Shown here piece after piece: positions 3,734 through 63,282 of a stretch of DNA of 64,000 nt. The position numbers were made by a program, and so were the translations under genes. How positions within the stretch are numbered: the stretch's first letter is position 1; each line of letters begins with the position of its first letter. The stretch comes from a virus. The notes beneath the pieces were generated by a model. That model searched no databases, was not told where the DNA came from, and was given only the letters and a program-made list of their open reading frames with translations. The stretch is from IMG/VR virus record IMGVR_UViG_3300036861_000507, positions 29,969-93,968 of that record. The stretch is one strand, 5' to 3'.

Positions 3734-3763
3734 TGAAATCATTAGCTTTTTGCCATTCCACCG

Positions 3764-15915: not shown

Positions 15916-16040
15916 ATCTCGGCGAAGGTGTGCTTGTGACATGCTCCCCGGCCTTCAGACCGGAGCTTCCCAGTGGGGTTCTCCTGGCTCACAGCGGGGC
16001 TCCTTCTGCAAGCGTGCCCAGTCCGGCACGGGCGATGTTG
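15916..16040 (-). ncRNA. Putative omegaRNA 3' part with guide AAGCACACCTTCGCCGAGAT
   Basis: Overlaps tnpB 3' end and right end; guide inferred as flank after TCAC; 5' boundary unknown. Confidence 0.55.
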
Positions 16041-17095: not shown

Positions 17096-17110
17096 TTCAA
17101 ACAGGGTCAT
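15989..17110 (-). CDS. tnpB: TnpB RNA-guided nuclease with rearranged RuvC-II glutamate
   Basis: GIDLG, IAVGN, VDERFTSQVCSACG, WECSECG, HDRDVNAALNI; start uncertain (in frame with phage ATG 17110). Confidence 0.92.
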   Translation of the reverse strand: MTLFEPSHELASARPVLQGGDSEPILLVLKFRLRDKHARELNRQARSVHYVWNYANETQQKAAKSGRRWLTAVDLQRLTAGAGKWLDLHAHTIQKVCQQYDRSRKQHKKAWLRFRGRKSLGWVPFNQGHVTFDGVAFKFRGIKYQPMHLRDIPAGSVIHAGSFNADTKGHWYINVPVEFPAEAFAKSGAAAVGIDLGLKELATLSTGEKIAAPQHYRRLQEKLGKAQRANKKRLACSIATKIANARKDHLHKASARIALAHGLIAVGNVSSSRLSRTRMAKSVLDAGWSTLRTQLSYKAMRHGGRMVEVDERFTSQVCSACGALPEGRPKGIADLGVRRWECSECGAVHDRDVNAALNIARAGLGTLAEGAPL

Positions 17111-17322
17111 GTGCTGCCTCCCTTTCGCGCCTCGTACGCTTCCCTCGACACGCACTCGATCCCGCGCGCCACCGGAACCCTCAAGCCGTCGGCGAGGATG
17201 ACGGTGCGCAAGATGCCGGCGTGCACCTGCTGCAGATCGGCAAGGCACTGGGCCTGGCTCGGCTGCGGCAGCGCGATCCGCTGGCCGGTGGTGAGGACCT
17301 GGATGATGAGGAACCACTTCAC
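17107..17322 (-). CDS. Small secreted protein
   Basis: MKWFLIIQVL, two Cys. Confidence 0.55.
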   Translation of the reverse strand: MKWFLIIQVLTTGQRIALPQPSQAQCLADLQQVHAGILRTVILADGLRVPVARGIECVSREAYEARKGGST

Positions 17323-17849
17323 GACGGCCGCCTCCCATCGTTACGTGAATGGACGATCTGTCGCCGCTTCTCGGCCAAATCGCGGATGGCACCGAGCGCG
17401 AACCGCTCGCGCACCTCGCGCATCAGCTCGACGCAATGGTCGGGATCGTGCCGGTGGCGCAGCCATAGCGCGAACAGCTCCCGGCGCAGCGCATAGGGAT
17501 CGATGGCCCGTACCCACCACCAGGACTCCTCCCCGTCGGGATGGTGGTGGAGGCTGTCATGGCAGTGCCAGCAGAGTGGGACGACGAACCAGTCGGGAGG
17601 CTGGCGCCCGAGCCCCGCCATGCGCCCCGCTTCTCCGAAGCGGATGTGGTGCGCGTGCATGGCGCGATTTTCGGGGCAGGTGCAGCACGACACCTGATTG
17701 ATGATGGCGACGTAGCGGGGCATGCGCCAGCCGGGCGGGACGGACACGCCCTTGCGCGCTTGGAAGCGCTCGGCGGGGCTGGGTCTGAAGTTGGCTAGCA
17801 CGTGCGGTGTCTCAATCTCGTAGGCTCTATCCCGTCGACGCATGGTCAT
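17319..17849 (-). CDS. DUF968/Ref-like His-Cys nuclease
   Basis: CCTC..HAHH..VVPLCWHCH..H. Confidence 0.75.
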   Translation of the reverse strand: MTMRRRDRAYEIETPHVLANFRPSPAERFQARKGVSVPPGWRMPRYVAIINQVSCCTCPENRAMHAHHIRFGEAGRMAGLGRQPPDWFVVPLCWHCHDSLHHHPDGEESWWWVRAIDPYALRRELFALWLRHRHDPDHCVELMREVRERFALGAIRDLAEKRRQIVHSRNDGRRPS

Positions 17850-43525: not shown

Positions 43526-43563
43526 TTGCGCTGCCCACGACATTCCCGTACATGCGACGACAT
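43526..43563 (+). promoter_or_regulatory. Promoter of RHH/TIGR-Tas operon with ACGACAT direct repeats
   Basis: TTGCGC-17-TACATG; leaderless ATG 43562. Confidence 0.55.
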
Positions 43564-43753
43564 GAGAAAAACGGCACCCATCTCGTTTCGGATCACGCCC
43601 AAATTGAAGAGCGCGCTGGAACGTCTGGCCAAGGCCGACCGTCGGTCGTTGTCGGCCTACATCGAATTGTGTCTGGAGGATTCCGTCGAGCGCGCGAGCC
43701 GCTCGCGACCTGAGCACACGAGTGCGCGTCAGCAACCGGGGGACCGCCCATGA
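43562..43753 (+). CDS. Arc/CopG ribbon-helix-helix regulator
   Basis: PISFRITPKLKSALERLAKADRRSLSAYI. Confidence 0.85.
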   Translation: MRKTAPISFRITPKLKSALERLAKADRRSLSAYIELCLEDSVERASRSRPEHTSARQQPGDRP

Positions 43754-44670
43754 GCGAGCGCTTCACCAAGGCCGACTTCACCCGCCTGATCCGGCGCGGT
43801 TACGCATCGAGCGATCAGCCCTTTGGCAAAGAGGTCGCCACGCTTCTGGCGTGGGCGGGGTGGTTCGTATCGTGGATGGACGTAGGCGATGAGACGCGTT
43901 TCACGAGCCTTAAGAGAAAGATGCGCGAACGTCGGCCGTTCAATAGCGCCGACCAGGAACAGATCATCACGTTCTTCAGTGGGTCAGACCGTTACTCACC
44001 TGCGCACGGGCTCGTCGTCTACGCCATGCGGCAGATGCAGCAAGAGATCGACAAGCTACGGAAACAGCTTGTCGATGGGGAAGGCCACAGGATGGCTGCC
44101 CGCAAGGGCCATCCGTCGACTGCCTCCCCATCGACTTCCGAACGAGAGGGTGCGGGCCATGAACGAGGTGCCGGAAACGGCCAGTCCTCTTGTGCCTCGC
44201 CCTCTCACTCCCCTGAAGACGACGCGGGCCAACGAGATCATGCCGGCAATGGCCACTTGCCGCTTGCCCCGTCGTCTTCTCCTCTTCGCGACGAGCCGGC
44301 AATCAGCAAGCCTCAGAGGCCGATGCCGGGACTGGGTGCCAGGTTCAAGAAGAAGCCCAACCGCTCGAAGTGGGGAACGGCACGCGATATCCAGGGCGCC
44401 GTCTCCAAGAACCTGCGCGACAGCATGCTGTGGGTCATCAATGGCGAGGGACGGCCGATGCCTCTTAGGAAGGCGGGCTATACCGAGCTGGCATCCTACG
44501 CGAAGCAGGGCGGTGCCGTGGCCATCATCTGCAAGCAGGTGCACTTCCGTCACCAGCGCAATCCCAACCGCTTCAAGCTGTCTGTCGAACAGCTTGAGCC
44601 TGATATCGACGGCATGGAGAAGCGAGCCATCGAAGCGGCTGATCGTGACTTCAAAAGGAGCGCAGCGTAA
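43750..44670 (+). CDS. Hypothetical protein containing three in-frame guide units
   Basis: ATGA overlap with RHH and TAATG overlap with tasA-like gene. Confidence 0.7.
   Translation: MSERFTKADFTRLIRRGYASSDQPFGKEVATLLAWAGWFVSWMDVGDETRFTSLKRKMRERRPFNSADQEQIITFFSGSDRYSPAHGLVVYAMRQMQQEIDKLRKQLVDGEGHRMAARKGHPSTASPSTSEREGAGHERGAGNGQSSCASPSHSPEDDAGQRDHAGNGHLPLAPSSSPLRDEPAISKPQRPMPGLGARFKKKPNRSKWGTARDIQGAVSKNLRDSMLWVINGEGRPMPLRKAGYTELASYAKQGGAVAIICKQVHFRHQRNPNRFKLSVEQLEPDIDGMEKRAIEAADRDFKRSAA
44071..44279 (+). ncRNA. TIGR-like stem-loop array units 1-3
   Basis: GGCCA-N9-TGCC-N6-GGCCA-N9-TGCC at 44083, 44155, 44227 (72-nt period), each closed by its own stem. Confidence 0.88.
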
Positions 44671-45698
44671 TGGCCAAGAAGACCAAGCCGTCAAAGCCAT
44701 CCGCAGACGAGGCCATCAAGGCCCTTGTCCATCTAACGAAGCGGCGCAAGGGCTTCATCCAGTTCGAGAACGCCAACACCAACAGGGTCAGAGCCATCAG
44801 CGCCGGTGCACTCGGCTATCACTCCGACTTGTCGGAAGAGGAAGGCGAGGCGATCACCAAAACGGCGGCGGCGATCATCACTGCCTATCTGAACGACAAG
44901 CCCTTGCCGCGAGAAGCCGCACGGATCAGCGAGGATATCTGGGGTGACCTCGCTGCATGCAGGGTGATGCTGGAGCCTATTCTCACACGGCGCCACGAGA
45001 TCGAATTGCAGATGAAGCAGACAGTGCGCCATCTTCCCATCGCCAAGTGGGCGAAACACAAAGACCGCAATGGACTTGGCGAAGTCGGGCTGGCTGCGGC
45101 CATTGGCGAGGCTGGCGACTTTTCGCTCTATTCCAGGGATGGCCTGCGCAAGCGCTTGGGGCTTGCCCCATTCACGCGCGCCAGTGACGGTGTCACGCGC
45201 GCCTGCTCGACATGGCGCATGGGCGGCGGTCTCAGCAAGGACGAATGGTCCGACGACGACGAGACGGGCTACAAGGGCCCTGGATATTCGCCGCGGCGCC
45301 GCGCGACCATCTACGCCGATGTGCAGGACTCGCTGCTGCGTGCCCAGTGGCGTGGAGCCGACAAGCATCCGAGCGGCAAAGCCGGCCCGATCGGTCCGTA
45401 TGGCGCAATCTACGGGACTTACAAAGCCAAGCAGATCGCACTCAATGAGGCTGGCGCCTTCAAGGACCTCGCCGAGGCGATTGTGGCCTCGTTGCGCAAG
45501 AACGGCAAGACCGTGCCGAAGGCGAACCTCGAAGGCCGCCTGACGGCGAAGCACATCGACAATCGCGCCAAGCGCTACATGGTGCAGAAGCTCTTCGACC
45601 ACATCGGGTCGGAGTGTCGGCGGCGGGCCAGCGGAGTGGTGCCTGAGAGGGCCTCTTTCCAGTTGCCCGCCGCCATCGAACACAGGCCATCAGCCTAG
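44670..45698 (+). CDS. TasA-like Nop/IS110-related protein lacking RuvC/HNH
   Basis: Coiled coil, GLGEVGLAAAIGEAGDF..LRKRLGLAP, GYSPRRR, HIDNRAKRYM; no DEDD domain; flanked by dual-spacer repeats. Confidence 0.82.
   Translation: MAKKTKPSKPSADEAIKALVHLTKRRKGFIQFENANTNRVRAISAGALGYHSDLSEEEGEAITKTAAAIITAYLNDKPLPREAARISEDIWGDLAACRVMLEPILTRRHEIELQMKQTVRHLPIAKWAKHKDRNGLGEVGLAAAIGEAGDFSLYSRDGLRKRLGLAPFTRASDGVTRACSTWRMGGGLSKDEWSDDDETGYKGPGYSPRRRATIYADVQDSLLRAQWRGADKHPSGKAGPIGPYGAIYGTYKAKQIALNEAGAFKDLAEAIVASLRKNGKTVPKANLEGRLTAKHIDNRAKRYMVQKLFDHIGSECRRRASGVVPERASFQLPAAIEHRPSA
45619..45674 (+). ncRNA. TIGR-like unit 4 within tasA 3' end
   Basis: GGCGGCG GGCCA-GCGGAGTGG-TGCC TGAGAG GGCCT-CTTTCCAGT-TGCC CGCCGCC. 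Confidence 0.8.
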
Positions 45699-45714
45699 CA
45701 AACGGGAGGTTGTA

Positions 45715-45999
45715 ATGCGCAAAGCTCTGATGCTGACAGTCCTGCTGATCTCATCCGCCATGCCGGCAGTCGCCGACGACACCTATGTTCAGGGCTACGT
45801 GCGAAAGGATGGCACCTACGTCCAGCCGCACTATCGGTCCGCGCCGAACAATTCCAACAACGACAACTGGTCCGTGCAGCCCAACTACAACCCCCATACG
45901 GGGAGGCAGGGCACCGATCGCCCGACCTTCGACGACAGGCCGCCGCCATCCAACCCGTTCAGCTTCGGAGGATCACGGAACAACTCCGGCTATCGTTGA
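45715..45999 (+). CDS. Small secreted protein
   Basis: Signal peptide; V.GY.RKDGTYVQPHYRSAPN..DNWS..N.NP.TG. Confidence 0.8.
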   Translation: MRKALMLTVLLISSAMPAVADDTYVQGYVRKDGTYVQPHYRSAPNNSNNDNWSVQPNYNPHTGRQGTDRPTFDDRPPPSNPFSFGGSRNNSGYR

Positions 46000-46004
46000 G
46001 CCAT

Positions 46005-46320
46005 CCGCCTAACGGCGGTGCGGGCGGCCATGACAGCGGTGCGCTTCGGCGCCAGAGCTGCGTTGCCGCCCGCTCTGACACAGGAAGGAAGCGACTTGAA
46101 ACCGAATGACGGGGATGCTGGCCACCCCAGCAGTGCCAGCAATGGCCAGCGCACAGCTGCCGGCGCCCCGTCTCCCTATGGCGACGGAGCGGGCCAGATG
46201 TGGAGTGCCAGCGATGGCCAGCATACAACTGCCCGCCCGTCGCCTCACAGCTACCGCGCAAGCGGTGCGGGCGGCCAGACAACACATGCGCTTCGGCGCT
46301 TGGCATAGAGTGCCGCCCGC
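46005..46320 (+). ncRNA. TIGR-like stem-loop array units 5-8
   Basis: GGCCA starts at 46026, 46120, 46192, 46273 with paired 9-nt variable segments and closing stems. Confidence 0.88.
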
Positions 46321-46339
46321 TTCTATTCGTGAGGACCGC

Positions 46340-46591: not shown

Positions 46592-46598
46592 GGACCGC

Positions 46599-46826: not shown

Positions 46827-46841
46827 GGACAGCACCGACAA

Positions 46842-50061: not shown

Positions 50062-53000
50062 CTACCGCATGCTGGGGAGCCGCTCGTCGGGTACAGGCTG
50101 CCGGAAATTGGGGGTTTTCGACAGATTGGGCGTCGGGCTCCTGCGCTTCTTGACGGTCTTCTCCCACTTCATGCCCAGCATGTCCTCGTCCTGGATCAGC
50201 TGCTCGACCCGATCCTTGACCTCGAGCCACTTCTCTTGGTCGTCCGCATAGTCGCCGACCTTGGCTTTGCGCCGACGCTGCATCAACTCGTCGAACACGG
50301 GCTCGGACGAGCCCTTCAATTCGTCGAGCACGGGCTGCGGATTGCGAATCTCGCGCTTCTCCCACCCCGGCCTACCGATATCGTGTAGCGCGTTCCACAC
50401 CTCGATCGCCGAGAGGCGCCCCAGGATGTCGTCGAGCTCGACCCGCTTTTGGGGTGAGAGCGGGATGGTCTCGCCCTTCTGGCCAGGCTGGGTGTTGACG
50501 AGCCGGTCCATCGCCATCTCCCGCTTCATGGCCTGGTCGATGGTGAAGATCGCTCGAGCCCGGTTCAGCGGGTGAGCCTCTTTCTCGGTGGGCTTGAAAT
50601 GCTTGTCGAGCACCGCATAGACCCGCTCCTCCGGCTTCAGCCCTGCCAGGAAGGCCTTGACGCTGTCCTCGCTGCCGGACTTCAGGACGTCGTCGTAGTC
50701 CTTGGCGGCCGCGGCATAGGGACCCTGGCCCTTGCCGGCGAGCCGCCAATACTCGCGCACCGACTCCGAACGTCTCGAGGGATCGAGCGTGAACCGGTTC
50801 ACCATGGTGCCGACGATCGGGTAGTCCGTGAGCTTGGGTGCCCGGTTGTCCTTGCCCGTGAAATAGTCCGTGTCAGTTTTGATCTCACGGCCCCAGTAGG
50901 CCAGTTCGGTCTGCAGGGCATAGTCGATCTTGTAGGGCGAGACCTCGATTCCCACGACATGCAGGGCGGTGGCCCATTCGTTGGCGAAGGCCGAGGTATA
51001 GGGTCCCCGCTGCCGCACCGCCGACAGCCCCGAGGCATAGTCCGGCACGATCGGCCGCCCGGTCCTGGGATCGACGCCGGTTCTGAGTGCGGCCTGCAGG
51101 TTCAGTGCCTGCGGAATCACCGGCGGGGTATGGCTGGCGAGGAAGCCGTCACGCAGCTTCTCCCACACGCGCGGATCGCCCTTGGCGAGCAGATCGAACG
51201 CAGCTTCGGTGGCAATGGCCGGATAGCCGAACTCGAAGCGCTTCAGCCGGTACCAGGTGTCCCCGGCCTTGAACACCCAGTGGTTGTACTTGGTCTGGTC
51301 GTCGGTGGTGCGGATGTCGTCATACTCGGGATCGTCCTTGTAGAGCATGGCGAGCGCGGCACCCGCGACACCGATCAGAGAGAGCCAGATCCACATGCGC
51401 ATGCCATCGCGGATCGCCTTCTGGTCGCGCTGCGACATGGTCTCCTTCATGGCCTGCTCGGCGCTGGCCCTGCGTGTAAGCGCGTAGCGCAGGTAGACCT
51501 TGAGCTTCTCCATGTCGGCGGCGCCGTAGAGCGTCCAGCCCACCCCCGCGCCGGCGGCGGCGCCCAATGCGGCCCCGACCGGGCCCGCCGGCATACCCAT
51601 CGCCGCGCCAGCGAACATGGTCCCCGCCGCACCCAAGAGTCCGCCCTGCACCGCGGGGATGGTGATGGCGCGGCCTCGTTCGCCCTCGATCATCCAGGCC
51701 TGTCGGTGCGCCTTGCCGACGCCCTGGATGTTGCCGTTGAAGAAGCTCACCGCGCGCAGCACCGCGCCCATCTGGAAACCGCGGCGGTCGAACGGCAAGG
51801 TATCGTTGGCCGTGAACACGCCCTCGCGGATCGCGTCGATCTCCGACATCGAGGGATCGAAGGCCTTGGCGCGCTTGGTCGCCCATTCCGCGACACCGCG
51901 CCGGCCGAACGTCTCCGACAACTCCGAGAACTTGGCAAACGCCGCCATGGAATTCTGGCCGAACAGCATGCGGGCCATCATGGCGCCGACCGAGACGCCG
52001 AGGGTGGCCCCGACGATTGCGCCGGTCGTCGCCGCGCCCGCGACGGCACCAGCAGCGGCGCCTGGCAGCCCCGCAGCCCGATAGCCCAGCACGCCGCCGA
52101 CCACGGCACCGGGCACGGCGAGGACGGCGCCAGCCCCCGCGCCCACCGCCGCGCCGACCGCGCCACCCGCCACTGCCGTCCCGAGCCCGGCCATGGCCCG
52201 GATATCGAACACCTGGTAACCCTTGTTGCGCAGCGCGGTGAGGTCGACGCCCTGACGGCGGCCCCGGGCGTGCTGAATGTCGGCCGTGATCTGGCCGCCG
52301 GCGATCAGCCCGACGCGGTCCTGCATCTGCGCCACGTCGGAGGGCGTGATGCCGAGCTTGGTCAGGCCAGTGCGAAATGCCGGGTAGCTCGACAGCTCGT
52401 GCCAGGCACCCCTGAGGTGCGTGTAGACCGGCGGGGCTCCGGTCAGCACGAGGGTATTCTGCATGTCGCCGATGATGTTGGCCATGATGTAGGCCGGGTG
52501 CATGACGACGCCGGCGCGCAGCACTTCCGCAGGGAACGCCACGACCCTGGTCAGGATGTCAGACATGGGCCGGCCGATCTCGTTCATGGCGGCCAGCAGG
52601 CGCGCGCCGTTCAAGGCGTCGTTGAAGCGGATAAGCTTCCGCTCGCCGTTCTCCCAGAACGGCATGATGATGCCGCGCTTGGGGCCGAGATGCTGGGGAT
52701 TGTAGATCAGCTGCACCTCGGCGTCGGAGAGGTGCGCCTCCATCTCCCGCACCAGCACTGCGGCATCCTGCGGGTCCATGCCCATCCCCACCGCATAGCG
52801 GGTGAGCTTGGCGAAGGTGCGCTCGTCGGCCGGCAGTGTCTCCTCGACCTCGATGCGCTCGACGATCTTGGCGGCCCCCGGCACCCGATCGGACAGGATG
52901 GCAAAGGCGCGCGCCACCTCGTTCCTCTGGATCGCCTCGGCCGTCGCGTAAGCACGCATCGCCATGGTCTCGAGCGCGCCGATGATGTTGCGGTCCGAGC

Positions 53001-56000
53001 CGACGAACGGCTTGGCCTTCTGGAAGCTCCTTTGTGCCGCCGGCGCTGCCTGGATACCCTGCAGCACCGCAGGAACGTCGGAGAAGTCACGCTGATTGGG
53101 AACGTAGTAGTTCTTGTGTCGCGACAGGTTGCGGTACTCCTCGTCGCTCCACAGCCCGGCCTGCCATTCCAGCGTGAGCAGCCGATGCTGCCAGTCGCGG
53201 GCCATCACCGAAGCGCCGCGCGCGCGCGGATTGGTCGTCTCGATCATCTCGATGGCGTGCCAGTATTCCTGGAACGCCTTTCGGTAGGGACGGCGTCCGC
53301 CTTCACGCGGCCCCTCGGCGATGATGGCGGCGATCTCCGGGGAGCCGCGGTAATAGTCGATGACCTGGACCGTGATCGCCGGATCCTGCAGGTTGCGCGC
53401 CCACTCGACGATGGCGCGCTGGGCCTCTAGGTAGCCCTGGAAGGTTGCCACCTTTGTCTCGGTCCAATCGAACCGTGCGCGGCCGCCCAGGAACTCGACC
53501 ATGGCGCCATGCAGGGTGGGACCTTTGGCCTCCAGATCACCGTAGCTTGTCACGCCGTTGACGATCAACTGGTGACCGACTTTGAAGGACTGCGGCAGCA
53601 TCCTCTGATGGTAATGGGGGTCCTCGGTGATGCGCAGCGAGATCGGCCGGCCCTCGGCGTCGCGCGCACCGCTGGCGTCGAGCTGGCGCAGCAGAGCCTG
53701 CTTGAGCTTGAGGCTCGGGTTGGTCATGTCGGCCAGGTTGAACGAGGCACTGGAAAGCCACTGGTCCACGACCTCGGCCTGGTTGTCGGTCTTGAAGAAG
53801 GCCTTGATCTTGTCCCAGGCCGTCGGAGGGCGCAGGGTGGCCACATCGGCGACGAGGCGCTCCACCGCCGTCGCCTTCTGGTAGTCCTGGTAGTCCTTGC
53901 TCAAGGTGGTGAGCTGGACCCGATCGAGCCCGTCGAGGATGTCGGGGCGCTCGGCATCCAACAGTTCGTTGAAGGCCTGGTAGAAACCGGGCGCTCCGAC
54001 CTGCGCCTTCTCTGGGGCCAGCACGTAGTCCCGGAAGAACTCGGCGAAGCCCTCGCTGAGCCAGCCCTCGTCCTCTTCGGAGGTGACCGAGGCCACCTGG
54101 CCCGCATAGGGCGACAGCTCCTCGGCATGGGTGGCGATCAGGTCCCGCAACGGCTCCCCGATCACGTGCTCCAGGTGGTGCCCGCCCTCGTGTGCGATGG
54201 CGTCGATGTCGGTCGACAGCCGGATCCTGGCAACTCCGCCGGGGGTCTGGTACTGGCCGGCGACGTTGGCCTGGGGTGAGAGCCGGCGGGAATACCCCGT
54301 CGCGGGGTTCCTGACCGTGATGCCGCCAAGGCCCTGCGTCACCGGCATCTGCAGGGCGCGCTTCAGGTCGGCGATGATGGCGGTGAGCGAGCGGGGCGAT
54401 GCTCCCAGCCCCTGGGCTCTCGGGTCATAGCCGGGGCCGATCTCGTCGCGGCGGAAGGAGGGCTCGAGTCTACCCTCGTTGCCGTTGCCATCGTTGGAGG
54501 CCTTGAAGGCGGCCATCAACACCGAGGAGCCTTCGCTCGCGGGGTCGAAGGATGCGTTGACGGAGCGAATATTGGAAGGGTCGAAGACGACAACCTCGTC
54601 GGACCCGTCGGGGTACCGGGCGATGACGCCGTCGTGGCCCGATGCCTGCAGCTGCTCCGTCAGCTGCGCTCCGTCATCCTCGCGAGCGGCCCGCTGCAAT
54701 TCCCTGATCTGCTGCGCGGACTGGTCATTCCACATGAAGGGGTTCTCGAGGCGCACGTACACTTCGCGCACATGCCCGCGCAGGAGACCGCCCTTGTAGG
54801 ACCTAGCGAGGCTGGAATCGCTGGTCAGGTAGATGCCGCGCCCATATTGGTTGACGCCCGTGCTCTCGGTGGCCCGGTCGAGGTCGAACGCATCGAACCG
54901 GCGTTGCTCGGGGGTGCCGTGGTAGTAGACCTTGCTGGCATCGAACCCCATCGCCTCCGCCCTTGCCTTCCTGGCTTGAGGCGACATGTCGAGGTCGGGG
55001 GAGGACTTGAAGGCCGCCATCAACTGCGAGCTGGCCTCCTGGGCCGGGTCGAAGGTGGCGTCAACCGAACGGATATTGGCGGGGTCGAAGACGACCAACT
55101 CGTCGGGATAAACGTGTCGACCCTGCTCATCGGTATCGACCGGGACAGCGTCTCGGTTGCCACGCAGGACGACGCTGGCGAAGCCTTCAGCCTTCAACTT
55201 CTCCAGGTCCTTGATGACGGTCGCTGGGTAATTGTACGTCGTCGCCAATATCTCGGCTTGTCGCCCGCGCACATAAACCGGCACGACCCTGCCAAGCCCC
55301 TCCCGACCGGTCTGAATGGCCCTCGCGTTGGCGTAGCCAGATGCCGTTTCACGATGCGAAGAAAAGAACACACCTTGAGCGCTCAGCGAATGGCGTCGAT
55401 CGCTACGACTGCCATCGAAGGCTGAAAAATATCTGCCCGTCCCGTGAAACCATACCCTACTCGTATCGAACCCCATCGCCTCGGCTCTGGCCTTGCGGGC
55501 ATCAGGCGACATGTCGAGGTTGGGAGAGGGCTTGAAGGCGGCCATCTCCGGGCCGGAGCCAACCCGCTCTCCGCCACGCTTCTGCGCATCGACCAGCTTG
55601 CGGTGGATGTTGATGATGTCTTCGACGTGGTTCTTCGACAGGCCGACGCTTGCGGCCGTGTTGATCAGAACATTGGCGATGTTCTGCACCGACGGGTCGA
55701 CTGCCGCCATGGCGATGGTCGCCGCATCGAAGAAAGCTTTGATCTCCGGCATCCTCATCAAGACGAGAGGATTGCGCCGCCCGCGCTCGATCTTGAAGTG
55801 GCGCGCGATGGCCTCTTCCCACACTTTGATCGGGCTGGCCCATCCCCGTTCCGGGAACTGAGAGATGGCCGCCATCTCTGGGCTCTCACCGAACGTCGGC
55901 TCGATCCGCTCTCCCCCTTCAGGCGTGCGCACGTTCTCCCCGAAGGCCTGCTCCAGCACGGCGTCGGCCGTCCTGAATCCCAGCCCGTTCAGCGCATTCC

Positions 56001-59000
56001 TGACCGCCTCGAAGAACTTGGCGATGCGCTCCAGCAATCTGTCGATGGCGGTGCCGTAGGAGGCCTTGCCGGCCACGAAGTCCTCGACCATGTGGGAGAC
56101 CATCTCCTGGTCGAGCATCTCCTTCAGGATCGCCTCTTTGACGGAGGCCGAGGCATCCGGATAGTGCTCCTCCACCGATTGCCGGTAGGTATCGCGGTAG
56201 AACTCGCGCCGGCCTTCCCGCCCCCCGAGCTTCTCGCCCTGCCCCAGCTTCTGGGCGCGGTCGGTCAGTAGCTTCCACTCCGGGTCGGACCACAGCCCCA
56301 TGCCCCGAAGCACATGGGCGGCCTCGTGCGCGCCGGTGCTCAGGGCTTCCGCGAACGTCCGGTCCCCCAGCGCGATGTTGATGATCCACGGGTCGGTATG
56401 GGCCCGACGCGGGCTGACCGAGCCCACCATCTCCGCGCCCGAGGCATGGAACAGCCGGTCCGCCATGCGGATGGCGACATCCTCGGGCAGCATCCTGCGC
56501 AGTTGCGCTTCGAGCGCCGGGGCGAACTCGGGCAGGGCTTGCTTGAAGACGTCGGCGTAAGGGTGGTCGGCGAAGGCGGCTAGGCCTTGCGGGCCGCCGC
56601 CTGGTCCTTCGCCTTCTTCTTTAGCGCTTCCACCTCGGTTGGTGTCAGCTTCGGTCCGCTGCTCAGCGCCTGATCGATCCAGCCCTCGTTGCGCTCCTCC
56701 CACTCCTCCAGCGAGCCGGGTGCGAACTTGCTCTTCGACGGCGTCGGCGAGGCCTGCAAAAGCTGCAGTTGCCTCGCGGACAACCCAGTGTTCTTCGTCG
56801 TCAGTCGGGGATACGCGCGCGTGCTCATAGACGGCCTCCTCGGAGACGGCGTTAGCATAGGCCTCGCTCGGGTTCAAGTCGTCGAAACGGTCCAAGGGCA
56901 CCGCCCGTCCGCTGCGGCGCCACCTGTCCACAGCCCGCTCCATGGCGATGGCTTTGGGCGTGTCGATGAAGATCAGGGTGGGCGCGTAGCCCTTCGACCA
57001 GAGCCACGCGGCGCGATCGGCGACCTTGGGCCATGATCCCAGCGTCTCGACGACAACGTTGTCGCCCGTGGCGATCAACTGGTCCGTCGTCAGCTTGGCA
57101 AGCTTGCTGCTCTCCTCGTGCACGCCCTCGCCGTTCTTGCCCCCATCGTATTCGGGGATGATGTCCTTGGGGATGTCCGACACCATGTGCGCGGCGCGGA
57201 ACTGTACCGACAGTGCGCGCGCGATGGTGCTTTTGCCGGCGCCGGGGTATCCGATGATGAGGTAGGCTTGCTTCTCGCGGGCGACGCCGCCAGGAACCTT
57301 CTGCTCGGCCTGGTCGGCAAGGTACCGCACCGCGTCGGCAACGCCCTTGATCTCCCTGCCATCCGCGGCCGCGTAGCGGCGCTCCCTGATCCACGTTGGG
57401 TCGCGCATGTAGCCGGGCTGGTTGTAGGTATAGAGCGAGGGGTCGGCCGGCTTCTCACCGGCGGCCTTCCACGCCGGACTCTCCATCACCCCCCGTGCCG
57501 CGGCTTCCCGTTCCTCCAGAGACCTCTGGGACCGTGGGCTGGCGAAGCTAAAAAGCGGTTGGCCTTCACCATAGCGCTCTATGAACGATTGGCGCACCCA
57601 TCGCTGTTCATCAGGCGGCAGTTCTGAATACGGTTTTCCGAACAGCTTCTGCGCGTGGGCTTCAAAAAGCTGCGGACCTTCAACGCCTGCGTTGGCTTTG
57701 ATTTCCTCTCCCAGCTTCCTGATGGCATCGTCAGCAAGCTCGTAGAGGCGAACTCGTTTTGCTATATCCTTGCCCTTCGCGATGAGACGGACATGCCCTT
57801 TCAGGGCGTGGTACGCGAGGATGGCGGAAGCAGCAGCGATGGCGCCGCCCGGAGCGGAACCCTGAGTTGCGGCGTAGAGACCGCCAGCACCGCCCGTTAT
57901 GCCAAGAGCACCTTCAATGTCGAGATCGCCCATGCCATGGTTGCGGCGCGCGCGGATTTCTAGTCTTAGATGATCCAAGGCAGCCTTGCCCCACAGACGT
58001 ATCTCATCCGCAAATGATGGCGGGGTCTCAGCGAGCGTCTTCTTCACAAAGTCGCGAATGATGCCTGTCGCTAGCCCCTCGTCACCTACCCTATAGGCGT
58101 CCTCTGCGGTCGAGCGAATTGCATTGGGCGCATTGGAAACTGCGCGCTTGAAGCCAGCGAAGCTAAAAAGCGGCATCCCCTGGGACAGCACGGAGGCCTT
58201 GACCTTGTCGGTCAGGGGGAAGGTGTGGAAGAGGATGGGCGGCGTTCCCTTGCGCTCTGGGCCAACCGAGCCGGGGCCGCCCGCTGTTTCCCAGCCGGTG
58301 ACCTTCTCGCGGTCGCTCGTGAAGACGCGACCGTCCATCGAAGACTTGAGCGGTTTCTCCTCCCCCTTGACGGACGGGTCCATCTTGGAGAGCAGCTTGG
58401 AGAGCATGCGGGGGTACATCTGGTCGTAGGCGTAGAGCATCCCGTGGCCGCCGATTTGCACTTGGCCAAGGTCGCTAAGCGTGTGCCACTCGCCCTGGCT
58501 TGCCTTGTCGTAAGCCGGTGTTTTGGCGAGCAACGCCTCCGTCATCTCTTTGCCGATGACGCTCGGCAAATCGCCCGGCTTGAACTCACGGCGCCCGCTG
58601 TTGTCCGTGAAGGTCTGCCATTGATTGCGGAATCTGTCGGTGGTGGGCGCGTACTCGAGGATACCCGTCTTGGGATTGTAACGCAGACCCGAGGCGACCT
58701 GGCTCAACTGCGGGTAGCGATCGACGCTGGTATTGCCGGGAGAGATGGCAATTGACTCCGCCCCCGCCTCTACGGCTTGCCGTATCAATCTACGGAAGGC
58801 AGTTGTCGTCCACTGGTCGGTGGTGTTGACGAGGGGATGGCCGGGGGTGGCGGCTGTTGCTGTGCGATGCTCAGCATCGAGTAGATTGAGGCTACGGCGT
58901 GCGTTGCCGAGCGCTTCGGCATCCTCTTTGCGGCCGCTTGCCCGCAATTGCTTTTCGAGTTGCTCGCCAGTCGTTGATCGGCCCATACCCCTAGCATTGG

Positions 59001-62000
59001 CGCCGTAGAGAGAGGTGGCGGCTTGATCCGCAAGGACGTTGTACTGATCGCGCGCCTCGTTCAGACGCGTCGCAAGCTCCGCAATCTTCGCCTCGTCCCG
59101 CGCTCCCCCATCCCTGAGCTTCTGAGCACCAGATGCTTGCAGTTCATCGACAAGGAACACGGGCTTGCCTGCCGCATCCTTCTGTAGCGACGTTCTTGAG
59201 TGGAAGAGGTAGCCGGGGATTTCAGAGTAGTGTCCCTCCTGGTAGCCGCCAATGCCGCCATCCCACTGACTGACGATGGCCCGCAAGCGATCAAGCTCAG
59301 ACTGCATGTCTGAGCGGTAGGGCTGCTCTTTCAGAGCTGCAAGCTGTGCGCGAGCATCGGATACGGTCTCTGGCTCACCAAGCGAGACGACCTGTTCGCG
59401 GTTTGTCGGGTTGCGTGGATCGACCGTCCAGTTCGTGTATTTAGCGTGGCGACGTGCGGGGCCGTTCGCGATCTGCGCCGCCCGCAGTCGCTCCATCAGA
59501 CCGCGCTGCTCATCGGATAGGTCAGGGGTGGGCGCGGTCTCGCCGTCCCGCACCTCTTCCATCATCGCGCGCGCTTCGCTTGGGCGCAGATGCGGATAGT
59601 CGTTGGCTAGGAATGCGAGATATTTCTGCTCAGCCGCCACAAGCGCCGTGAATTCGGGACCGCCGTAGACGCTCTCCCTCAGCTCCACCCTGTGCTCTTC
59701 CAGGAAGGAGACGATGTCGGACTTGGTGATGCTCTTCTTGCCCTCCAGGAACGTGTCCAGCTTGGTGGCGGCAAGCTCCGCCTCCTTGACGCCCGTGCCC
59801 TTGGTGAGCATCGAGCGCATCTGCTCCGGCGTGCCCTTCTCCTGCTTCAGGGCTTTGGCGGCTTCCAGGGCTTGGGAGTAGAAGCCGAGGGAGTCGAAGG
59901 CGCGGCGCTGATCCTGGCCCTGCTCCGCAAACGCGGCCATCTCCACGCTGTCGGCATATTTGGCAAGATCATCGTGGCGCTTCTGGATCGAAGCGAGCGC
60001 CGCTTCCTTGGTGGTCTTCGCGGTGGGCCGCCGGCCGACCAGATGGGCAAGCTCCAGCACCTCGGCCTTGCTCAGCCGACCCGCGCGTCCGGTCTGCGCC
60101 CGTCCCGAGGCGGCCTCGGTCAGTGCCGCCATCTCCCGCTCGAATGCGGGAGTGCCGCGTGCCGTCTCGATGGTTTCCGCCCAGTTGCGGACCGTTTCGG
60201 AGACGGGCTTGCCGGTCTCGGCCTCCCTGATCCGCACCGCGCTGGCGATGCGCACATCGGGCGGGATGGCCTGCGTCTCGGCGAGCGGCCGCGTCCGCGA
60301 TTCGCGCGGCGCGACGCGCACCAGCTTGGTGCGACGCACGTTCGGCACGCTGGCCTTGAGATGGGCGTCGGCCTCCGGTGACAGGACCGGAGTGGGAGCA
60401 CCTTCGCCCATGGCGCGCGTGTAGGTGTTGAGCTCGCTCGCCACTTCAGGCGATGGCGCGGTGCGGATGGCCTTGACGAGGTCGGGTGCCCCGTACCTCT
60501 GCAGCAACCCGGCCTCGACCGCCTCGTCGACCAGGGTGCCGAGCTTGGCCTCGTCGACATTGAGCATGCGGGCCCAGGACGATTTCGGCGACTTGCCCGC
60601 CAGCAGGGACCGGAACCTCTGTCTTAGGGCGCGCTCGTGCTCGCGCTCGGCGGGGCCTGGCTGCCGCGCTTGCTGAGCAGCACGTTGAGATGGGCCTGGC
60701 GGTTGAGCGCGGCCGCCCGCTCCGGGTCGGGCTCTTGTTGCGCCCACTCCTGCAGCTGCTGGGCCATTTGCCCGTGCACCTCCGGGGACGCCAGCGGCTT
60801 GACCGGCTGGCGCGGCTGCGGTGCGGCCGCCTGGCTGGGTTCCGGACTCGCCTCGCCCTTCACCGGCTCCGGTTGGGGTTTCGGCTTGGGCTTCCTCGCG
60901 GCCGGCCCTTTCCGCTTCGAACCTTTCGACGGCATAGCGCTCCAGCGCCTCCTCTGCGGCGAGCCCCTGGGCCATGTGGAAGGCGACGGATCGGACGTCC
61001 TCGTCGCCCAGGTCCCAGGCCACGCCCTGCTCGTTATACACGGCCTCGATGTCGGCGCCATAGCCGGCGAGGTTCTGGTCCACGTCGCGCTCGAGAGCGG
61101 AGCGCTGTTCATCCGTGAGCGGCTTGGCGATGCTGGCCAGTTGCGTGGCCAGCTCGCGCTGCCAGGCCGGAGCCGCCTTGGTCAGCTCCGCCGCCGGGAC
61201 GCCGGTGTTGGACCCCTCGACGGTGGCCCACCGTCCGTCGGGCGAAAGCCACGTGACCTTGCGCGGCTCGGTGAATTGGTCGGTTCCGCCCGAGGTCCAC
61301 TGCACCTCGTCGCCGACGGCCACCGATGGCGGGGCCGCCTCTTGACCGGCAACGCGATCAACGGCCTCGGCCCCGCCGACGGGCTTGATGTCGCCCAGAC
61401 CGCGGCCGAGCACCGGCTTGCGCACCATGGCGGCCATGCGCATGCCGTCCGGCTCTTGGTCGGCCGCCGCAGTCGCTGCCGGAACGATGACCGCACCAGC
61501 CGTTCCCGCAGGCTGGCCCTCTCCTGAACCGGCTTTCTCTTTCCCTTCCGCAGCCTGATGCACCGCCTCGGTGCCGGGGAAGAATTCCGGCTGCGCGAAG
61601 GCTGGGGCCTGCTGTTGCGCGGGCGCGGTTTCCGTTGGCGCCGCGCCCGGCTCTACATCGGACCGAACGCCTCCCGCGCGCACCTTGGCCTCGCGCACCG
61701 GCGTCGCGGCAGGCGCCCCTTCGGCTTCCTGCCCGCGCATCTTGCGGTAGACGTCGGCAATCGCCTGGCTCTTGGCGCCCAGCAGTCCGCCGATCAGCGC
61801 GCCATCCCAGGCGCTATCGTCCCACCGGCGCTTGTCGTCGTAGAAGTGGCGGGCCGTGACGTTCTCGGCCACCGACTGGGCGAACTCCTGCCCGCCTTCC
61901 TCGTAGGCCTGGGCGAAGATGCGCTTGATCCATGCGCCCTTCTGACCGTGGAACAGGTGGGCGATCGGCGCCGCTTCCGTGGCGCCGATCGGCAGGGCGA

Positions 62001-63282
62001 GCAGGGTGGCGGCAAAGATGTCGTCCTCGTCGACAGCCACGCCATCGACGGTCTTGCCGGCCTTGAAGGCCTTCAGCGCATCGTCGCCCATGGCGCCGGC
62101 CTGGCTCATGGCACCGGCGCCGCCAGCGGTCACCCCGACATTGACATAGGGGTTGGCGATCAGATTGGGGATCAGGCTCAGGCCGGCCCGCTGCATCCCG
62201 AAGCGCGCGACATTGAGCGCTGCCGCCGGCCCCATAAAGCCGATCATGGAGCCCAGGCCCTCGCCGAACTGCGCCTTGAACTCGTTGGCCCTGGCCTCAT
62301 CCTTGGGGAAGGCGGCATCGGCCCAGTCCGACACGTCCTTGCCGACCTTGTAGAGCGCGCGCTCCTGCACTGTGCCCATCGGTGTGGTGTCGAGCTTTAC
62401 CGGGCTTTGGTCATCGGGGGCGTAGAAGTCGTAGCCCTTGATGCTCTCCACCGCGGCGCCAGCGTAGGCGACGCCCTTCAGCACGTTGGCCACCACGCCG
62501 TCGACGATGCCGTGGCCGGTGGTGTCGGCGATCAGGCGGCCTGTACCAGTCCTGGGCCCTTCCTTGAGGCCCATCTCCATCAGGTCGGCGGCCTCGCGGC
62601 GCTGGCGATGGAAGGCGATCTGCTCGTTGACCTTGCGCTGCAGCCAGGTCGACTCGCCAGCCGGCTGGCGTCCTTCCGCCTCCAGATTCCGGGCCGACGG
62701 GTCGGCAAGGTTGTCCTTGGCCCACGTCCACCAGCCCGCGGCCTTGGTGGTGTAGTCCTTCTCGCCCTTGATCCAGTCGGCGCGGCCTTTGTCGTCGAGG
62801 TTGTCCCAATCGCCAAACAGGGCGCGCGAGGACGTGCGCTGGGCACCCTCCTCCTCCAGCTGCCGCTCCACGGCCTGGCGGTTGCCGAGGTCGTCGAAGA
62901 CGCCGCGGTCCTGCAGTTCCTTGGCCAGCGGGCTGGTCCCGACTTCCTCCTGCTGCGCAGGCTCGCGCGCGCGCCGCTCCCACGGCGGGGTCTCGTCCTC
63001 AGGCTCTGCCGTCTTGGCCGCAATCCTCGTGAACCCCGCATCGCCCTCATCGAGGTCTTCGATCAGTTCCGGCGCATAGACCGGCATGCGCCTGTCGATG
63101 TCGGGCTCGGGTGCAGGGCGCATGATGCCCTTGTCGTCGCCGCCAGCCGTGTTGAGCAGCGTCTCCTCGTAGCTCTGGGTAGGCAGGTACGCTCTGCCGC
63201 TCAGATCTTCGGGATCGTCCGGGTTGTCGAGCACCGTGCGGTCCGGCCACCACGGCTTGGCTGCTTTCGGGAGGGTTGCCAT
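50062..63282 (-). CDS. Giant (4406 aa) polyvalent virion/ejection protein
   Basis: Zeta-toxin-like P-loop (GYPGAGKS), two ART-like domains (HGT..F/Y..E.VVFDP.NIRS), two HExxH motifs, glycine zippers, LPD38-like C-terminal region. Confidence 0.85.
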   Translation of the reverse strand: MATLPKAAKPWWPDRTVLDNPDDPEDLSGRAYLPTQSYEETLLNTAGGDDKGIMRPAPEPDIDRRMPVYAPELIEDLDEGDAGFTRIAAKTAEPEDETPPWERRAREPAQQEEVGTSPLAKELQDRGVFDDLGNRQAVERQLEEEGAQRTSSRALFGDWDNLDDKGRADWIKGEKDYTTKAAGWWTWAKDNLADPSARNLEAEGRQPAGESTWLQRKVNEQIAFHRQRREAADLMEMGLKEGPRTGTGRLIADTTGHGIVDGVVANVLKGVAYAGAAVESIKGYDFYAPDDQSPVKLDTTPMGTVQERALYKVGKDVSDWADAAFPKDEARANEFKAQFGEGLGSMIGFMGPAAALNVARFGMQRAGLSLIPNLIANPYVNVGVTAGGAGAMSQAGAMGDDALKAFKAGKTVDGVAVDEDDIFAATLLALPIGATEAAPIAHLFHGQKGAWIKRIFAQAYEEGGQEFAQSVAENVTARHFYDDKRRWDDSAWDGALIGGLLGAKSQAIADVYRKMRGQEAEGAPAATPVREAKVRAGGVRSDVEPGAAPTETAPAQQQAPAFAQPEFFPGTEAVHQAAEGKEKAGSGEGQPAGTAGAVIVPAATAAADQEPDGMRMAAMVRKPVLGRGLGDIKPVGGAEAVDRVAGQEAAPPSVAVGDEVQWTSGGTDQFTEPRKVTWLSPDGRWATVEGSNTGVPAAELTKAAPAWQRELATQLASIAKPLTDEQRSALERDVDQNLAGYGADIEAVYNEQGVAWDLGDEDVRSVAFHMAQGLAAEEALERYAVERFEAERAGREEAQAETPTGAGEGRGESGTQPGGRTAAAPAGQAAGVPGGARANGPAAAGVGATRARPGAGGRAQPPGPSQRAAQQARQPGPAEREHERALRQRFRSLLAGKSPKSSWARMLNVDEAKLGTLVDEAVEAGLLQRYGAPDLVKAIRTAPSPEVASELNTYTRAMGEGAPTPVLSPEADAHLKASVPNVRRTKLVRVAPRESRTRPLAETQAIPPDVRIASAVRIREAETGKPVSETVRNWAETIETARGTPAFEREMAALTEAASGRAQTGRAGRLSKAEVLELAHLVGRRPTAKTTKEAALASIQKRHDDLAKYADSVEMAAFAEQGQDQRRAFDSLGFYSQALEAAKALKQEKGTPEQMRSMLTKGTGVKEAELAATKLDTFLEGKKSITKSDIVSFLEEHRVELRESVYGGPEFTALVAAEQKYLAFLANDYPHLRPSEARAMMEEVRDGETAPTPDLSDEQRGLMERLRAAQIANGPARRHAKYTNWTVDPRNPTNREQVVSLGEPETVSDARAQLAALKEQPYRSDMQSELDRLRAIVSQWDGGIGGYQEGHYSEIPGYLFHSRTSLQKDAAGKPVFLVDELQASGAQKLRDGGARDEAKIAELATRLNEARDQYNVLADQAATSLYGANARGMGRSTTGEQLEKQLRASGRKEDAEALGNARRSLNLLDAEHRTATAATPGHPLVNTTDQWTTTAFRRLIRQAVEAGAESIAISPGNTSVDRYPQLSQVASGLRYNPKTGILEYAPTTDRFRNQWQTFTDNSGRREFKPGDLPSVIGKEMTEALLAKTPAYDKASQGEWHTLSDLGQVQIGGHGMLYAYDQMYPRMLSKLLSKMDPSVKGEEKPLKSSMDGRVFTSDREKVTGWETAGGPGSVGPERKGTPPILFHTFPLTDKVKASVLSQGMPLFSFAGFKRAVSNAPNAIRSTAEDAYRVGDEGLATGIIRDFVKKTLAETPPSFADEIRLWGKAALDHLRLEIRARRNHGMGDLDIEGALGITGGAGGLYAATQGSAPGGAIAAASAILAYHALKGHVRLIAKGKDIAKRVRLYELADDAIRKLGEEIKANAGVEGPQLFEAHAQKLFGKPYSELPPDEQRWVRQSFIERYGEGQPLFSFASPRSQRSLEEREAAARGVMESPAWKAAGEKPADPSLYTYNQPGYMRDPTWIRERRYAAADGREIKGVADAVRYLADQAEQKVPGGVAREKQAYLIIGYPGAGKSTIARALSVQFRAAHMVSDIPKDIIPEYDGGKNGEGVHEESSKLAKLTTDQLIATGDNVVVETLGSWPKVADRAAWLWSKGYAPTLIFIDTPKAIAMERAVDRWRRSGRAVPLDRFDDLNPSEAYANAVSEEAVYEHARVSPTDDEEHWVVREATAAFAGLADAVEEQVRTRLAGGVGGAQRGLDRSGAEQRTEADTNRGGSAKEEGEGPGGGPQGLAAFADHPYADVFKQALPEFAPALEAQLRRMLPEDVAIRMADRLFHASGAEMVGSVSPRRAHTDPWIINIALGDRTFAEALSTGAHEAAHVLRGMGLWSDPEWKLLTDRAQKLGQGEKLGGREGRREFYRDTYRQSVEEHYPDASASVKEAILKEMLDQEMVSHMVEDFVAGKASYGTAIDRLLERIAKFFEAVRNALNGLGFRTADAVLEQAFGENVRTPEGGERIEPTFGESPEMAAISQFPERGWASPIKVWEEAIARHFKIERGRRNPLVLMRMPEIKAFFDAATIAMAAVDPSVQNIANVLINTAASVGLSKNHVEDIINIHRKLVDAQKRGGERVGSGPEMAAFKPSPNLDMSPDARKARAEAMGFDTSRVWFHGTGRYFSAFDGSRSDRRHSLSAQGVFFSSHRETASGYANARAIQTGREGLGRVVPVYVRGRQAEILATTYNYPATVIKDLEKLKAEGFASVVLRGNRDAVPVDTDEQGRHVYPDELVVFDPANIRSVDATFDPAQEASSQLMAAFKSSPDLDMSPQARKARAEAMGFDASKVYYHGTPEQRRFDAFDLDRATESTGVNQYGRGIYLTSDSSLARSYKGGLLRGHVREVYVRLENPFMWNDQSAQQIRELQRAAREDDGAQLTEQLQASGHDGVIARYPDGSDEVVVFDPSNIRSVNASFDPASEGSSVLMAAFKASNDGNGNEGRLEPSFRRDEIGPGYDPRAQGLGASPRSLTAIIADLKRALQMPVTQGLGGITVRNPATGYSRRLSPQANVAGQYQTPGGVARIRLSTDIDAIAHEGGHHLEHVIGEPLRDLIATHAEELSPYAGQVASVTSEEDEGWLSEGFAEFFRDYVLAPEKAQVGAPGFYQAFNELLDAERPDILDGLDRVQLTTLSKDYQDYQKATAVERLVADVATLRPPTAWDKIKAFFKTDNQAEVVDQWLSSASFNLADMTNPSLKLKQALLRQLDASGARDAEGRPISLRITEDPHYHQRMLPQSFKVGHQLIVNGVTSYGDLEAKGPTLHGAMVEFLGGRARFDWTETKVATFQGYLEAQRAIVEWARNLQDPAITVQVIDYYRGSPEIAAIIAEGPREGGRRPYRKAFQEYWHAIEMIETTNPRARGASVMARDWQHRLLTLEWQAGLWSDEEYRNLSRHKNYYVPNQRDFSDVPAVLQGIQAAPAAQRSFQKAKPFVGSDRNIIGALETMAMRAYATAEAIQRNEVARAFAILSDRVPGAAKIVERIEVEETLPADERTFAKLTRYAVGMGMDPQDAAVLVREMEAHLSDAEVQLIYNPQHLGPKRGIIMPFWENGERKLIRFNDALNGARLLAAMNEIGRPMSDILTRVVAFPAEVLRAGVVMHPAYIMANIIGDMQNTLVLTGAPPVYTHLRGAWHELSSYPAFRTGLTKLGITPSDVAQMQDRVGLIAGGQITADIQHARGRRQGVDLTALRNKGYQVFDIRAMAGLGTAVAGGAVGAAVGAGAGAVLAVPGAVVGGVLGYRAAGLPGAAAGAVAGAATTGAIVGATLGVSVGAMMARMLFGQNSMAAFAKFSELSETFGRRGVAEWATKRAKAFDPSMSEIDAIREGVFTANDTLPFDRRGFQMGAVLRAVSFFNGNIQGVGKAHRQAWMIEGERGRAITIPAVQGGLLGAAGTMFAGAAMGMPAGPVGAALGAAAGAGVGWTLYGAADMEKLKVYLRYALTRRASAEQAMKETMSQRDQKAIRDGMRMWIWLSLIGVAGAALAMLYKDDPEYDDIRTTDDQTKYNHWVFKAGDTWYRLKRFEFGYPAIATEAAFDLLAKGDPRVWEKLRDGFLASHTPPVIPQALNLQAALRTGVDPRTGRPIVPDYASGLSAVRQRGPYTSAFANEWATALHVVGIEVSPYKIDYALQTELAYWGREIKTDTDYFTGKDNRAPKLTDYPIVGTMVNRFTLDPSRRSESVREYWRLAGKGQGPYAAAAKDYDDVLKSGSEDSVKAFLAGLKPEERVYAVLDKHFKPTEKEAHPLNRARAIFTIDQAMKREMAMDRLVNTQPGQKGETIPLSPQKRVELDDILGRLSAIEVWNALHDIGRPGWEKREIRNPQPVLDELKGSSEPVFDELMQRRRKAKVGDYADDQEKWLEVKDRVEQLIQDEDMLGMKWEKTVKKRRSPTPNLSKTPNFRQPVPDERLPSMR
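56580..56828 (-). CDS. Nested same-strand ORF after zeta-like domain
   Basis: GAGGAGG 6 nt before ATG; 82-aa protein-like product. Confidence 0.55.
   Translation of the reverse strand: MSTRAYPRLTTKNTGLSARQLQLLQASPTPSKSKFAPGSLEEWEERNEGWIDQALSSGPKLTPTEVEALKKKAKDQAAARKA
60624..60935 (-). CDS. Nested same-strand ORF in giant-gene linker
   Basis: GGAG upstream; helical MAQQLQEWAQQEPDPERAAALNRQAHL. Confidence 0.45.
   Translation of the reverse strand: MPSKGSKRKGPAARKPKPKPQPEPVKGEASPEPSQAAAPQPRQPVKPLASPEVHGQMAQQLQEWAQQEPDPERAAALNRQAHLNVLLSKRGSQAPPSASTSAP

Follow-up and report, generated by a model that had tools for sequence, protein, structure and literature searches.

The window analyzed in this work is a stretch of 64,000 nucleotides (nt), corresponding to positions 29,969–93,968 of the IMG/VR virus record IMGVR_UViG_3300036861_000507, a virus contig of 93,968 bp from soil metagenomes. 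It carries a candidate system of the TIGR-Tas type (TIGR, tandem interspaced guide RNA), represented by the gene tasA, encoding a Nop-domain protein without a nuclease domain, and by hairpin units, each with two 9-nt spacers. The genes and units form an apparent single operon on the plus strand, in the order: a ribbon-helix-helix (RHH) gene; a partner gene containing units 1–3; tasA, containing unit 4; a small gene; and units 5–8 (Table 1). The stop codon of the RHH gene overlaps the start codon of the partner gene (ATGA), the stop codon of the partner gene overlaps the start codon of tasA (TAATG), and these overlaps resemble those of a translationally coupled operon.

Exactly eight guide units were found in the window, all on the plus strand, in three blocks flanking or lying within the tasA region; according to a covariance-model scan, all of them are located within 1.6 kb of tasA. 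Each unit is represented by one arm of a closing stem, CCA-N9-TG, a 10-nt loop, a second CCA-N9-TG and the other arm of the stem, and the core CCA-N9-TG-N10-CCA-N9-TG is exactly 38 nt long in 8/8 units. In published TIGR systems (PMC12045711), CCA is box C, UG is box D, and the two spacers are 8–12 nt long, usually 9. In the alignment of the eight units, the columns of the first box C and of both boxes D have an entropy of 0 bits, and the columns of the two spacers have entropies of 1.65 and 1.63 bits; that is, the 9-mers are almost fully variable. The second box C deviates in two units, and the locus is a single array mixing CCA, CCU and CUU boxes. The strict pattern GCCA-N9-TGC-N(3–14)-CCA-N9-TGCC occurs six times in the window and was absent from 100 dinucleotide-preserving shuffles. 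Scanning all 94 kb of the contig with a relaxed regular expression revealed no further units, and the region 43000–47000 gave no Rfam match at E<=1.

The consensus structure obtained with RNAalifold contains a closing stem of 13 bp and an inner hairpin of 4 bp, with the spacers unpaired. Compensatory changes were found in 11 of the 17 consensus pairs, including 9 of the 13 pairs of the closing stem. Paired cells account for 87.5% of the alignment of the stems versus 67.6% in shuffles (none of 500 shuffles reached the observed value), and their share falls to 49% or less once the partners are shifted by 1–3 columns. When folded individually, each unit closes with a long stem and places the spacers in an internal loop, with energies of -32 to -43 kcal/mol. 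The covariance model R1, built from the eight units of the window only, scores 54–71 bits on these units, and the next best score in the window is 15.9 bits; the latter match, at 13838–13908 (E=0.17), has no second box C and no second spacer and was discarded. Unit-specific palindromic flanks are thus present in place of edge repeats, which is the distinguishing feature of the stem-loop class of TIGR arrays, where variable palindromes replace the edge repeats (PMC12045711). The initial annotation, made from the sequence alone, had listed eight dual-spacer units with sixteen 9-mers of fixed length and variable sequence, enclosed by closing stems that differ and still pair; all of these were recovered in the sequence as listed.

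The product of tasA consists of a coiled coil (residues 12–119), a C-terminal RNA-binding domain (residues 124–320) and a disordered tail (residues 321–342). In its AlphaFold model (predicted local distance difference test score 87.3, predicted template modeling score 0.82), residues 12–119 form three long helices, residues 124–320 form a helical domain, and the tail is disordered. The family of this protein comprises 133 proteins at E<=0.001, nearly all of them unnamed metagenomic sequences, and 1/133 bears the IS110 Pfam domain PF02371. A profile of 43 family members matched TaTasR (9MTY) at E=1e-12 over the Nop part and TasH at E=2.3e-4, and matched no IS110 chain; a phmmer search of the PDB sequences with the single 342-aa protein gave no match, and only the profile search succeeded. 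In structure comparison with the model, TasH scored 14.7 (216 residues, deviation 3.3) and TasR 13.9 (190 residues, deviation 2.7), followed by IS621 and ISCro4 with scores of about 12 (181–182 residues, 3.0–3.1) and by Nop56/58 and Prp31 with scores of about 7 (170–191 residues, 4.3–6.3), so that Tas structures outscore IS110 structures. The sequence LWKRLGLAP, a motif of the family, is also carried by a sequence included in the Data S1 seed alignment of the nuclease-less clade (PMC12045711).

The structural alignments start at residues 1–14 of the model, at residues 46–66 of TasH and at residue 111 of TasR, i.e., past the nuclease domain of either target (HNH in TasH, RuvC in TasR), which leaves no space for such a domain in the window protein. 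Pfam detected no nuclease domain in the 342-aa protein either. On the basis of these alignment starts, the protein is assigned to the nuclease-free TasA type. The gene itself is intact: every invariant residue of the family is kept, the ribosome-binding site AAGGAG is strong, and the GC content at third codon positions (GC3) is of the coding type.

Unit 4 is located inside the 3' end of tasA, within its last 26 codons, and encodes tail residues from about 317 to 337. Variation of the spacers at this orthologous 3' unit was read from the protein alignment. In the homologues P0002–P0005, the closest relatives of the protein with 43–59% identity, the residues RRA, VPE and LPAA, encoded by the scaffold, are preserved, whereas those encoded by the spacers vary, so the 9-mers are not constant across relatives. 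The initial annotation had proposed a Nop/IS110-type protein without a nuclease as part of a TIGR-Tas-like system, and had named invariance of the 9-mers across related phages as an observation that would contradict it. The protein proved to be of the Tas type both by profile and by fold, with no domain ahead of the coiled coil, and the 9-mers vary within the array as well as among relatives; together with the boxes, every defining feature of such a system that can be read from sequence is present.

Homologues of the protein are encoded by eighty viral contigs, and the set of related viral loci that was scanned comprises 81 loci (638 kb). R1 found 85 matches in this set at E<=0.01, of which 84 are on the strand of the gene; all 85 are at locus positions 2767–5132, with the gene start at 4001, i.e., beside or inside the gene. 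In most contigs a pattern script likewise revealed CCA-N9-TG...CCA-N9-TG units on the gene's strand, flanked by palindromes and adjacent to or within the gene, and all the spacers that it extracted are different. Because R1, derived from the window alone, finds units at the genes of homologues, the association of the unit RNA with the family of the 342-aa protein is general across phages. Scans of genomes and metagenomes for close relatives gave nothing useful and yielded only the distant locus L081.

Systems of this type have been described in PMC12045711 (Faure et al. 2025) and in 10.64898/2026.09.09.750476 (Xu et al. 2026). The former describes three sub-arrays in an example that has TasA. 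The latter reports a catalog of 2,559 stem-loop arrays, with units upstream and downstream of tas and in frame inside the tas coding sequence, a loop mostly of 9 nt in which a hairpin is possible, and CUU as a variant of box C; it also reports that TasA binds target DNA and represses transcription reversibly and in a guide-dependent manner. Structures of PlTasA complexes have been solved (Guan et al. 2026, 10.64898/2026.08.11.744272). Accordingly, stem-loop arrays, guides inside coding sequence and repression by TasA are already published. The window system is similar to the stem-loop TIGR-TasA systems PlTasA (contig from Peromyscus leucopus gut), BlTasA (Bifidobacterium longum) and MbTasA (Minisyncoccota) in the nuclease-less Nop protein starting with a coiled coil, the hairpin units with two 9-nt spacers, each between box C and box D, the variable yet palindromic closing stems, the phage setting, and the sub-arrays located on the gene strand upstream, downstream and inside coding sequence. 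It differs in that its protein is remote in sequence, with only a profile match to solved chains, and in the form of the units, which in PlTasA are CCA...CG with a short loop (Table S1) and in the window are CCA/UG with a 10-nt loop containing a 4-bp hairpin. Three guides of the window lie in a separate partner gene and not in tas; no such gene appears in the consulted parts of the first two papers.

The dual-repeat systems TaTasR (PDB 9MTY) and SpTasH (PDB 9W03/9W04) share with the locus the CCA/UG boxes and 9-nt spacers, but the window protein has neither RuvC nor HNH, and the units have their own stems instead of edge repeats. The 22-residue tail past the last helix, compared by eye with the tails of TasH, TasR and FpTasA, contains no tyrosine and no 'KLGH'-like string, so that no processing loop of the 'Y...KLGH' type is visible in it; absence of this C-terminal Y/H loop, with which dual-repeat effectors process their guide RNAs, is a published trait of the stem-loop class. 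Unlike IS621 (PDB 8WT6) and ISCro4 (PDB 9T56), the locus has no DEDD catalytic domain and no element ends, and it contains many single hairpins rather than one two-loop bridge RNA. Compared with the core of the box C/D small nucleolar ribonucleoprotein (Nop5, Nop56/58) and with Prp31, the window protein lacks the fibrillarin-binding domain and a kink-turn/L7Ae partner, and its target would, by family inference, be DNA and not RNA.

Taken together, these data make it very probable that this 94-kb soil-phage contig carries a TIGR-TasA system of the stem-loop type, functioning as an RNA-guided DNA-binding repressor. Direct support exists for how the units are built and how they covary, for the match to Tas proteins in fold and in profile, for the lack of a nuclease domain, and for such units accompanying homologues in numerous other phage contigs. 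The steps of its action are modeled on the published family. The transcript would be cut, probably by host RNases, into hairpin TIGR guide RNAs (tigRNAs) of about 60–70 nt. A TasA dimer, joined via the coiled coil, would bind each tigRNA at both of its box C/box D pairs (CCA/UG), leaving the two 9-nt spacers exposed. Spacer A is reported to pair with one target strand and spacer B, in the adjoining segment, with the opposite one, gaps of <=2 bp being tolerated (PMC12045711); in the window, each spacer would thus cover one of two adjoining 9-bp segments. The DNA target would be the 18-mer formed by A and the reverse complement of B, A+revcomp(B), the orientation being fixed by the reported 8-nt 3' overhangs, with which the target form given in the initial annotation agrees. 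Because TasA has no nuclease, the complex would stay on the DNA without cutting and would block transcription, perhaps also replication. Such a system would be a natural programmable repressor, most likely directed against competing mobile elements or host genes.

Table 1. Genes, guide units and other features of the window (positions within the 64,000-nt stretch; R1, score against the covariance model built from the eight units)
Feature	Position	Strand	First CCA	Spacers A / B	R1, bits	Description
RHH gene	43562..43753	+				63 aa; opens the apparent operon
Partner gene	43750..44670	+				306 aa; N-terminal domain, linker from units 1–3, C-terminal domain of ~115 aa
tigRNA unit 1	44069..44138	+	44085	CAGGATGGC / TCCGTCGAC	71.1	
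tigRNA unit 2	44141..44210	+	44157	TGAACGAGG / GTCCTCTTG	65.1	
tigRNA unit 3	44213..44282	+	44229	ACGAGATCA / CTTGCCGCT	62.4	
tasA	44670..45698	+				342 aa, Nop-domain protein without nuclease domain
tigRNA unit 4	45612..45681	+	45628	GCGGAGTGG / CTTTCCAGT	63.7	Second box C is CCT
Small gene	45715..45999	+				94 aa, signal-peptide-like N-terminus; between unit 4 and units 5–8
tigRNA unit 5	46012..46081	+	46028	TGACAGCGG / GAGCTGCGT	61.3	Inner loop is a GCGC-UUCG-GCGC hairpin
tigRNA unit 6	46106..46175	+	46122	CCCCAGCAG / GCGCACAGC	71.3	
tigRNA unit 7	46178..46247	+	46194	GATGTGGAG / GCATACAAC	71.3	
tigRNA unit 8	46259..46328	+	46275	GACAACACA / GGCATAGAG	54.6	Second box C is CTT; scaffold as in unit 5
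Integrase gene	3764..5128	-				Large; PHROG 1, E=6e-45
IS-type transposase gene	15989..17392	-				PHROG 506, E=7e-68
Giant gene	50062..63282	-				4406 aa
tRNA-Glu (CTC)	57840..57912	-				ARAGORN call, inside the giant gene

Units 5 and 8 are nearly identical in flanks, stems and the UUCG inner hairpin: their scaffolds and flanks coincide at 42/52 positions, and their spacers at 3/18, which is the random level (Fisher p=2e-6). Since the two units share the scaffold but not the spacers, this pattern points to replacement of the spacers rather than uniform drift. Units 6 and 7 have the loop in common, and their spacers B are identical at 6/9 positions. Both pairs suggest, at the level of sequence, that units may duplicate and that their spacers may then be replaced.

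The partner gene contains units 1–3 in frame, with an exact period of 72 nt (24 codons). In its single frame, the N and C domains have GC3 values of the coding type (0.77 and 0.78), unlike the array part (0.60). In its homologues P0122–P0125 and P0128, similar repeats are translated in this same frame, and a partner gene with the conserved C-domain immediately precedes tas in at least 25 related loci. Units of the upstream gene are in the codon phase 'GGC CAN' in 21/26 cases, equivalent to 12/13 independent loci. The link between the C-domain of the window and the family of the related loci is weak to moderate (hhalign probability 58%, E=1e-4). The locus L002 has the same layout as the window (partner gene L002:3391–4032), and in L006 the partner gene (2887–3645) is accompanied by a further array joined in frame with tas at its 5' end (3614–5041). 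No family or fold match for the partner gene was found by Pfam, PHROG or structure search, the fold of its C-domain matching nothing known. The partner gene might link tigRNA maturation to its own translation or to the turnover of its mRNA, or might supply an activity for processing or spacer renewal. It is tentatively proposed that the upstream gene, which in many diverged phages has in-frame units of fixed codon phase between two folded domains, may be a functional third component of the TasA clade, in which case units 5 and 8 would be the footprint of active spacer replacement; this is a possibility with the lesser share of probability.

The RHH gene showed Pfam matches to NikA-like (E=3.4e-4) and RHH_1 (E=3.4e-3), both short of the curated cut-offs, and a match to the PHROG of Arc-like repressors (E=2.3e-6); PHROGs of partition-type RHH proteins were matched as well. 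No RHH homologue was found beside tas in the 81 related loci. Of the 'autoregulatory RHH protein' of the initial annotation, the gene for an RHH protein thus stands, with weak matches; autoregulation is purely conjectural, and the gene is not conserved beside tas. The small gene matched PHROG 29674 of unknown function (E=1.2e-16) and has GC3 of 0.80 and the ribosome-binding site GGGAGG; its product carries YV.GY.RKDGTYV.PH repeats. Searches of the 80 related viral loci by tblastn with the small gene, the RHH gene, the partner gene and the downstream genes gave no match.

The stretch is present in two soil-metagenome DNA runs, both identical to it, with no microdiversity. GenBank phages gave no match to the 342-aa protein (tblastn) or to a 20-kb part of the window (megablast); a search through the neighboring endolysin revealed no sibling phages, and megablast of the insertion sequence (IS) element against plasmids gave no match. 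The contig encodes a GH25 lysozyme, and the presence of the integrase and the IS-type transposase suggests a temperate or otherwise integrating element. The tRNA-Glu called inside the giant gene may be spurious, or may represent a tRNA-like element that lies within a coding region.

A number of results weigh against the interpretation of the locus as a working RNA-guided repressor. Searches of viral contigs with six guides for the exact form A+revcomp(B), with a gap of 0–2 nt, matched 4, 2, 68, 2, 0 and 0 contigs per guide, which looks like background, and no contig was matched by more than one guide. No self-target at <=2 mismatches was found in the 94-kb contig, and the searches of the contig and of viral contigs established no natural target, so the search for such 18-mers in phage sequences suggested in the initial annotation remained fruitless. 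No RNA run is listed as containing the stretch beside the two soil DNA runs, and no promoter-like site was found by a sigma-70 scan. Pfam gave no family match for the 342-aa protein, and in the Foldseek search of PDB the E-values were weak (best 0.013), although the top seven hits were all TIGR-Tas entries. The motif CTT at or next to the stem base, with flanks read by eye, is present only in units 1, 3 and 8, i.e., in about 3/8 of the units; CUU at this position is a processing-site motif, reported as frequent and not obligatory (10.64898/2026.09.09.750476).

The 68 matches of unit 3 comprise 51 near-identical contigs and about 10 unrelated sites, all of which read E-I-x-S-G-K. In the 51 near-identical contigs, with about 60% GC (among L088–L155, e.g., L093:6633–6652), the target form with a 2-bp gap, ACGAGATCA-CA-AGCGGCAAG, is exact, and this 20-mer is located 30–50 nt into a gene for an unknown 292-aa protein (MPFSSMDDLVNEITSGKF...). 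Because the string encodes the common motif E-I-x-S-G-K, the matches may be due to chance, and they are regarded as a background of coding bias, a lead at most. Targets of 18 nt are reported to yield many false positives (10.64898/2026.09.09.750476).

Among the other explanations, the one with the most weight, though itself rather unlikely, is that of a genuine TIGR-TasA system with a role other than transcriptional repression, with the guided, DNA-bending complex for instance blocking the replication or partition of rivals, marking sites at which the integrase or the packaging of the phage would act, or regulating the phage life cycle. Alternative roles of TasA, and ParB-like partners in some loci, have been raised (PMC12045711); the window contains an integrase, its RHH protein matches partition-type PHROGs, and the searches yielded no natural target that would point to the role. 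The only TasA activity demonstrated experimentally, however, is target-specific reversible repression with DNA binding, and the lack of guide matches to the phage's own contig at <=2 mismatches argues against self-regulation and self-marking. A decaying or silent relic, with units unexpressed or unbound and 9-mers varying by drift, would fit the missing RNA runs, the missing targets and the two non-canonical second boxes, CCT and CTT. It is nevertheless improbable, as all eight stems pair, with compensatory changes, the boxes are invariant but for CUU, a published variant of box C (10.64898/2026.09.09.750476), and tasA retains the invariant residues of its family, a strong ribosome-binding site and GC3 of the coding type; furthermore, the near-identical scaffolds and unrelated spacers of units 5 and 8 are the opposite of what uniform drift would leave.

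Two further explanations carry hardly any weight. An IS110-family mobile element or its remnant, whose hairpins would be recombination guides similar to bridge RNA, would be expected to have the DEDD/RuvC domain, but the protein starts with a coiled coil; its model is closer to Tas than to IS110 structures, and its profile matches TasR and TasH and no IS110 chain. The eight single hairpins with two 9-nt loops do not correspond to one two-loop bridge RNA, and neither terminal repeats nor copies of an element were seen. Equally implausible are a repeat at the protein level (a low-complexity linker) and ordinary palindromic or terminator-like hairpins without guide function. The 72-nt period of units 1–3 in an open frame speaks for a protein repeat; the compensatory changes, however, keep the pairing and not the amino acids, the array part lacks the GC3 bias of the domains on either side, and units 5–8 lie outside any convincing gene, with spacings of 94, 72 and 81 nt, two of the three being multiples of 3. 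In other phages R1 finds units only beside tas homologues, and no terminator-like site was found on the plus strand.

TIGR-Tas systems are very compact RNA-guided DNA binders, independent of a protospacer-adjacent motif, and are of interest as genome tools; questions about them concern their targets, the maturation of guides and the renewal of spacers. The locus leaves the picture of the system unchanged and adds a clean example from a high-GC soil phage, in which the CCA/UG boxes are canonical. It also adds the embedding of guides in two genes, a partner gene that is conserved, and a pair of scaffolds with swapped spacers. Only two parts of the locus, the partner gene with its guides in frame and the pair of swapped-spacer scaffolds, go beyond the published descriptions consulted, and both bear on the questions of guide maturation and spacer turnover.

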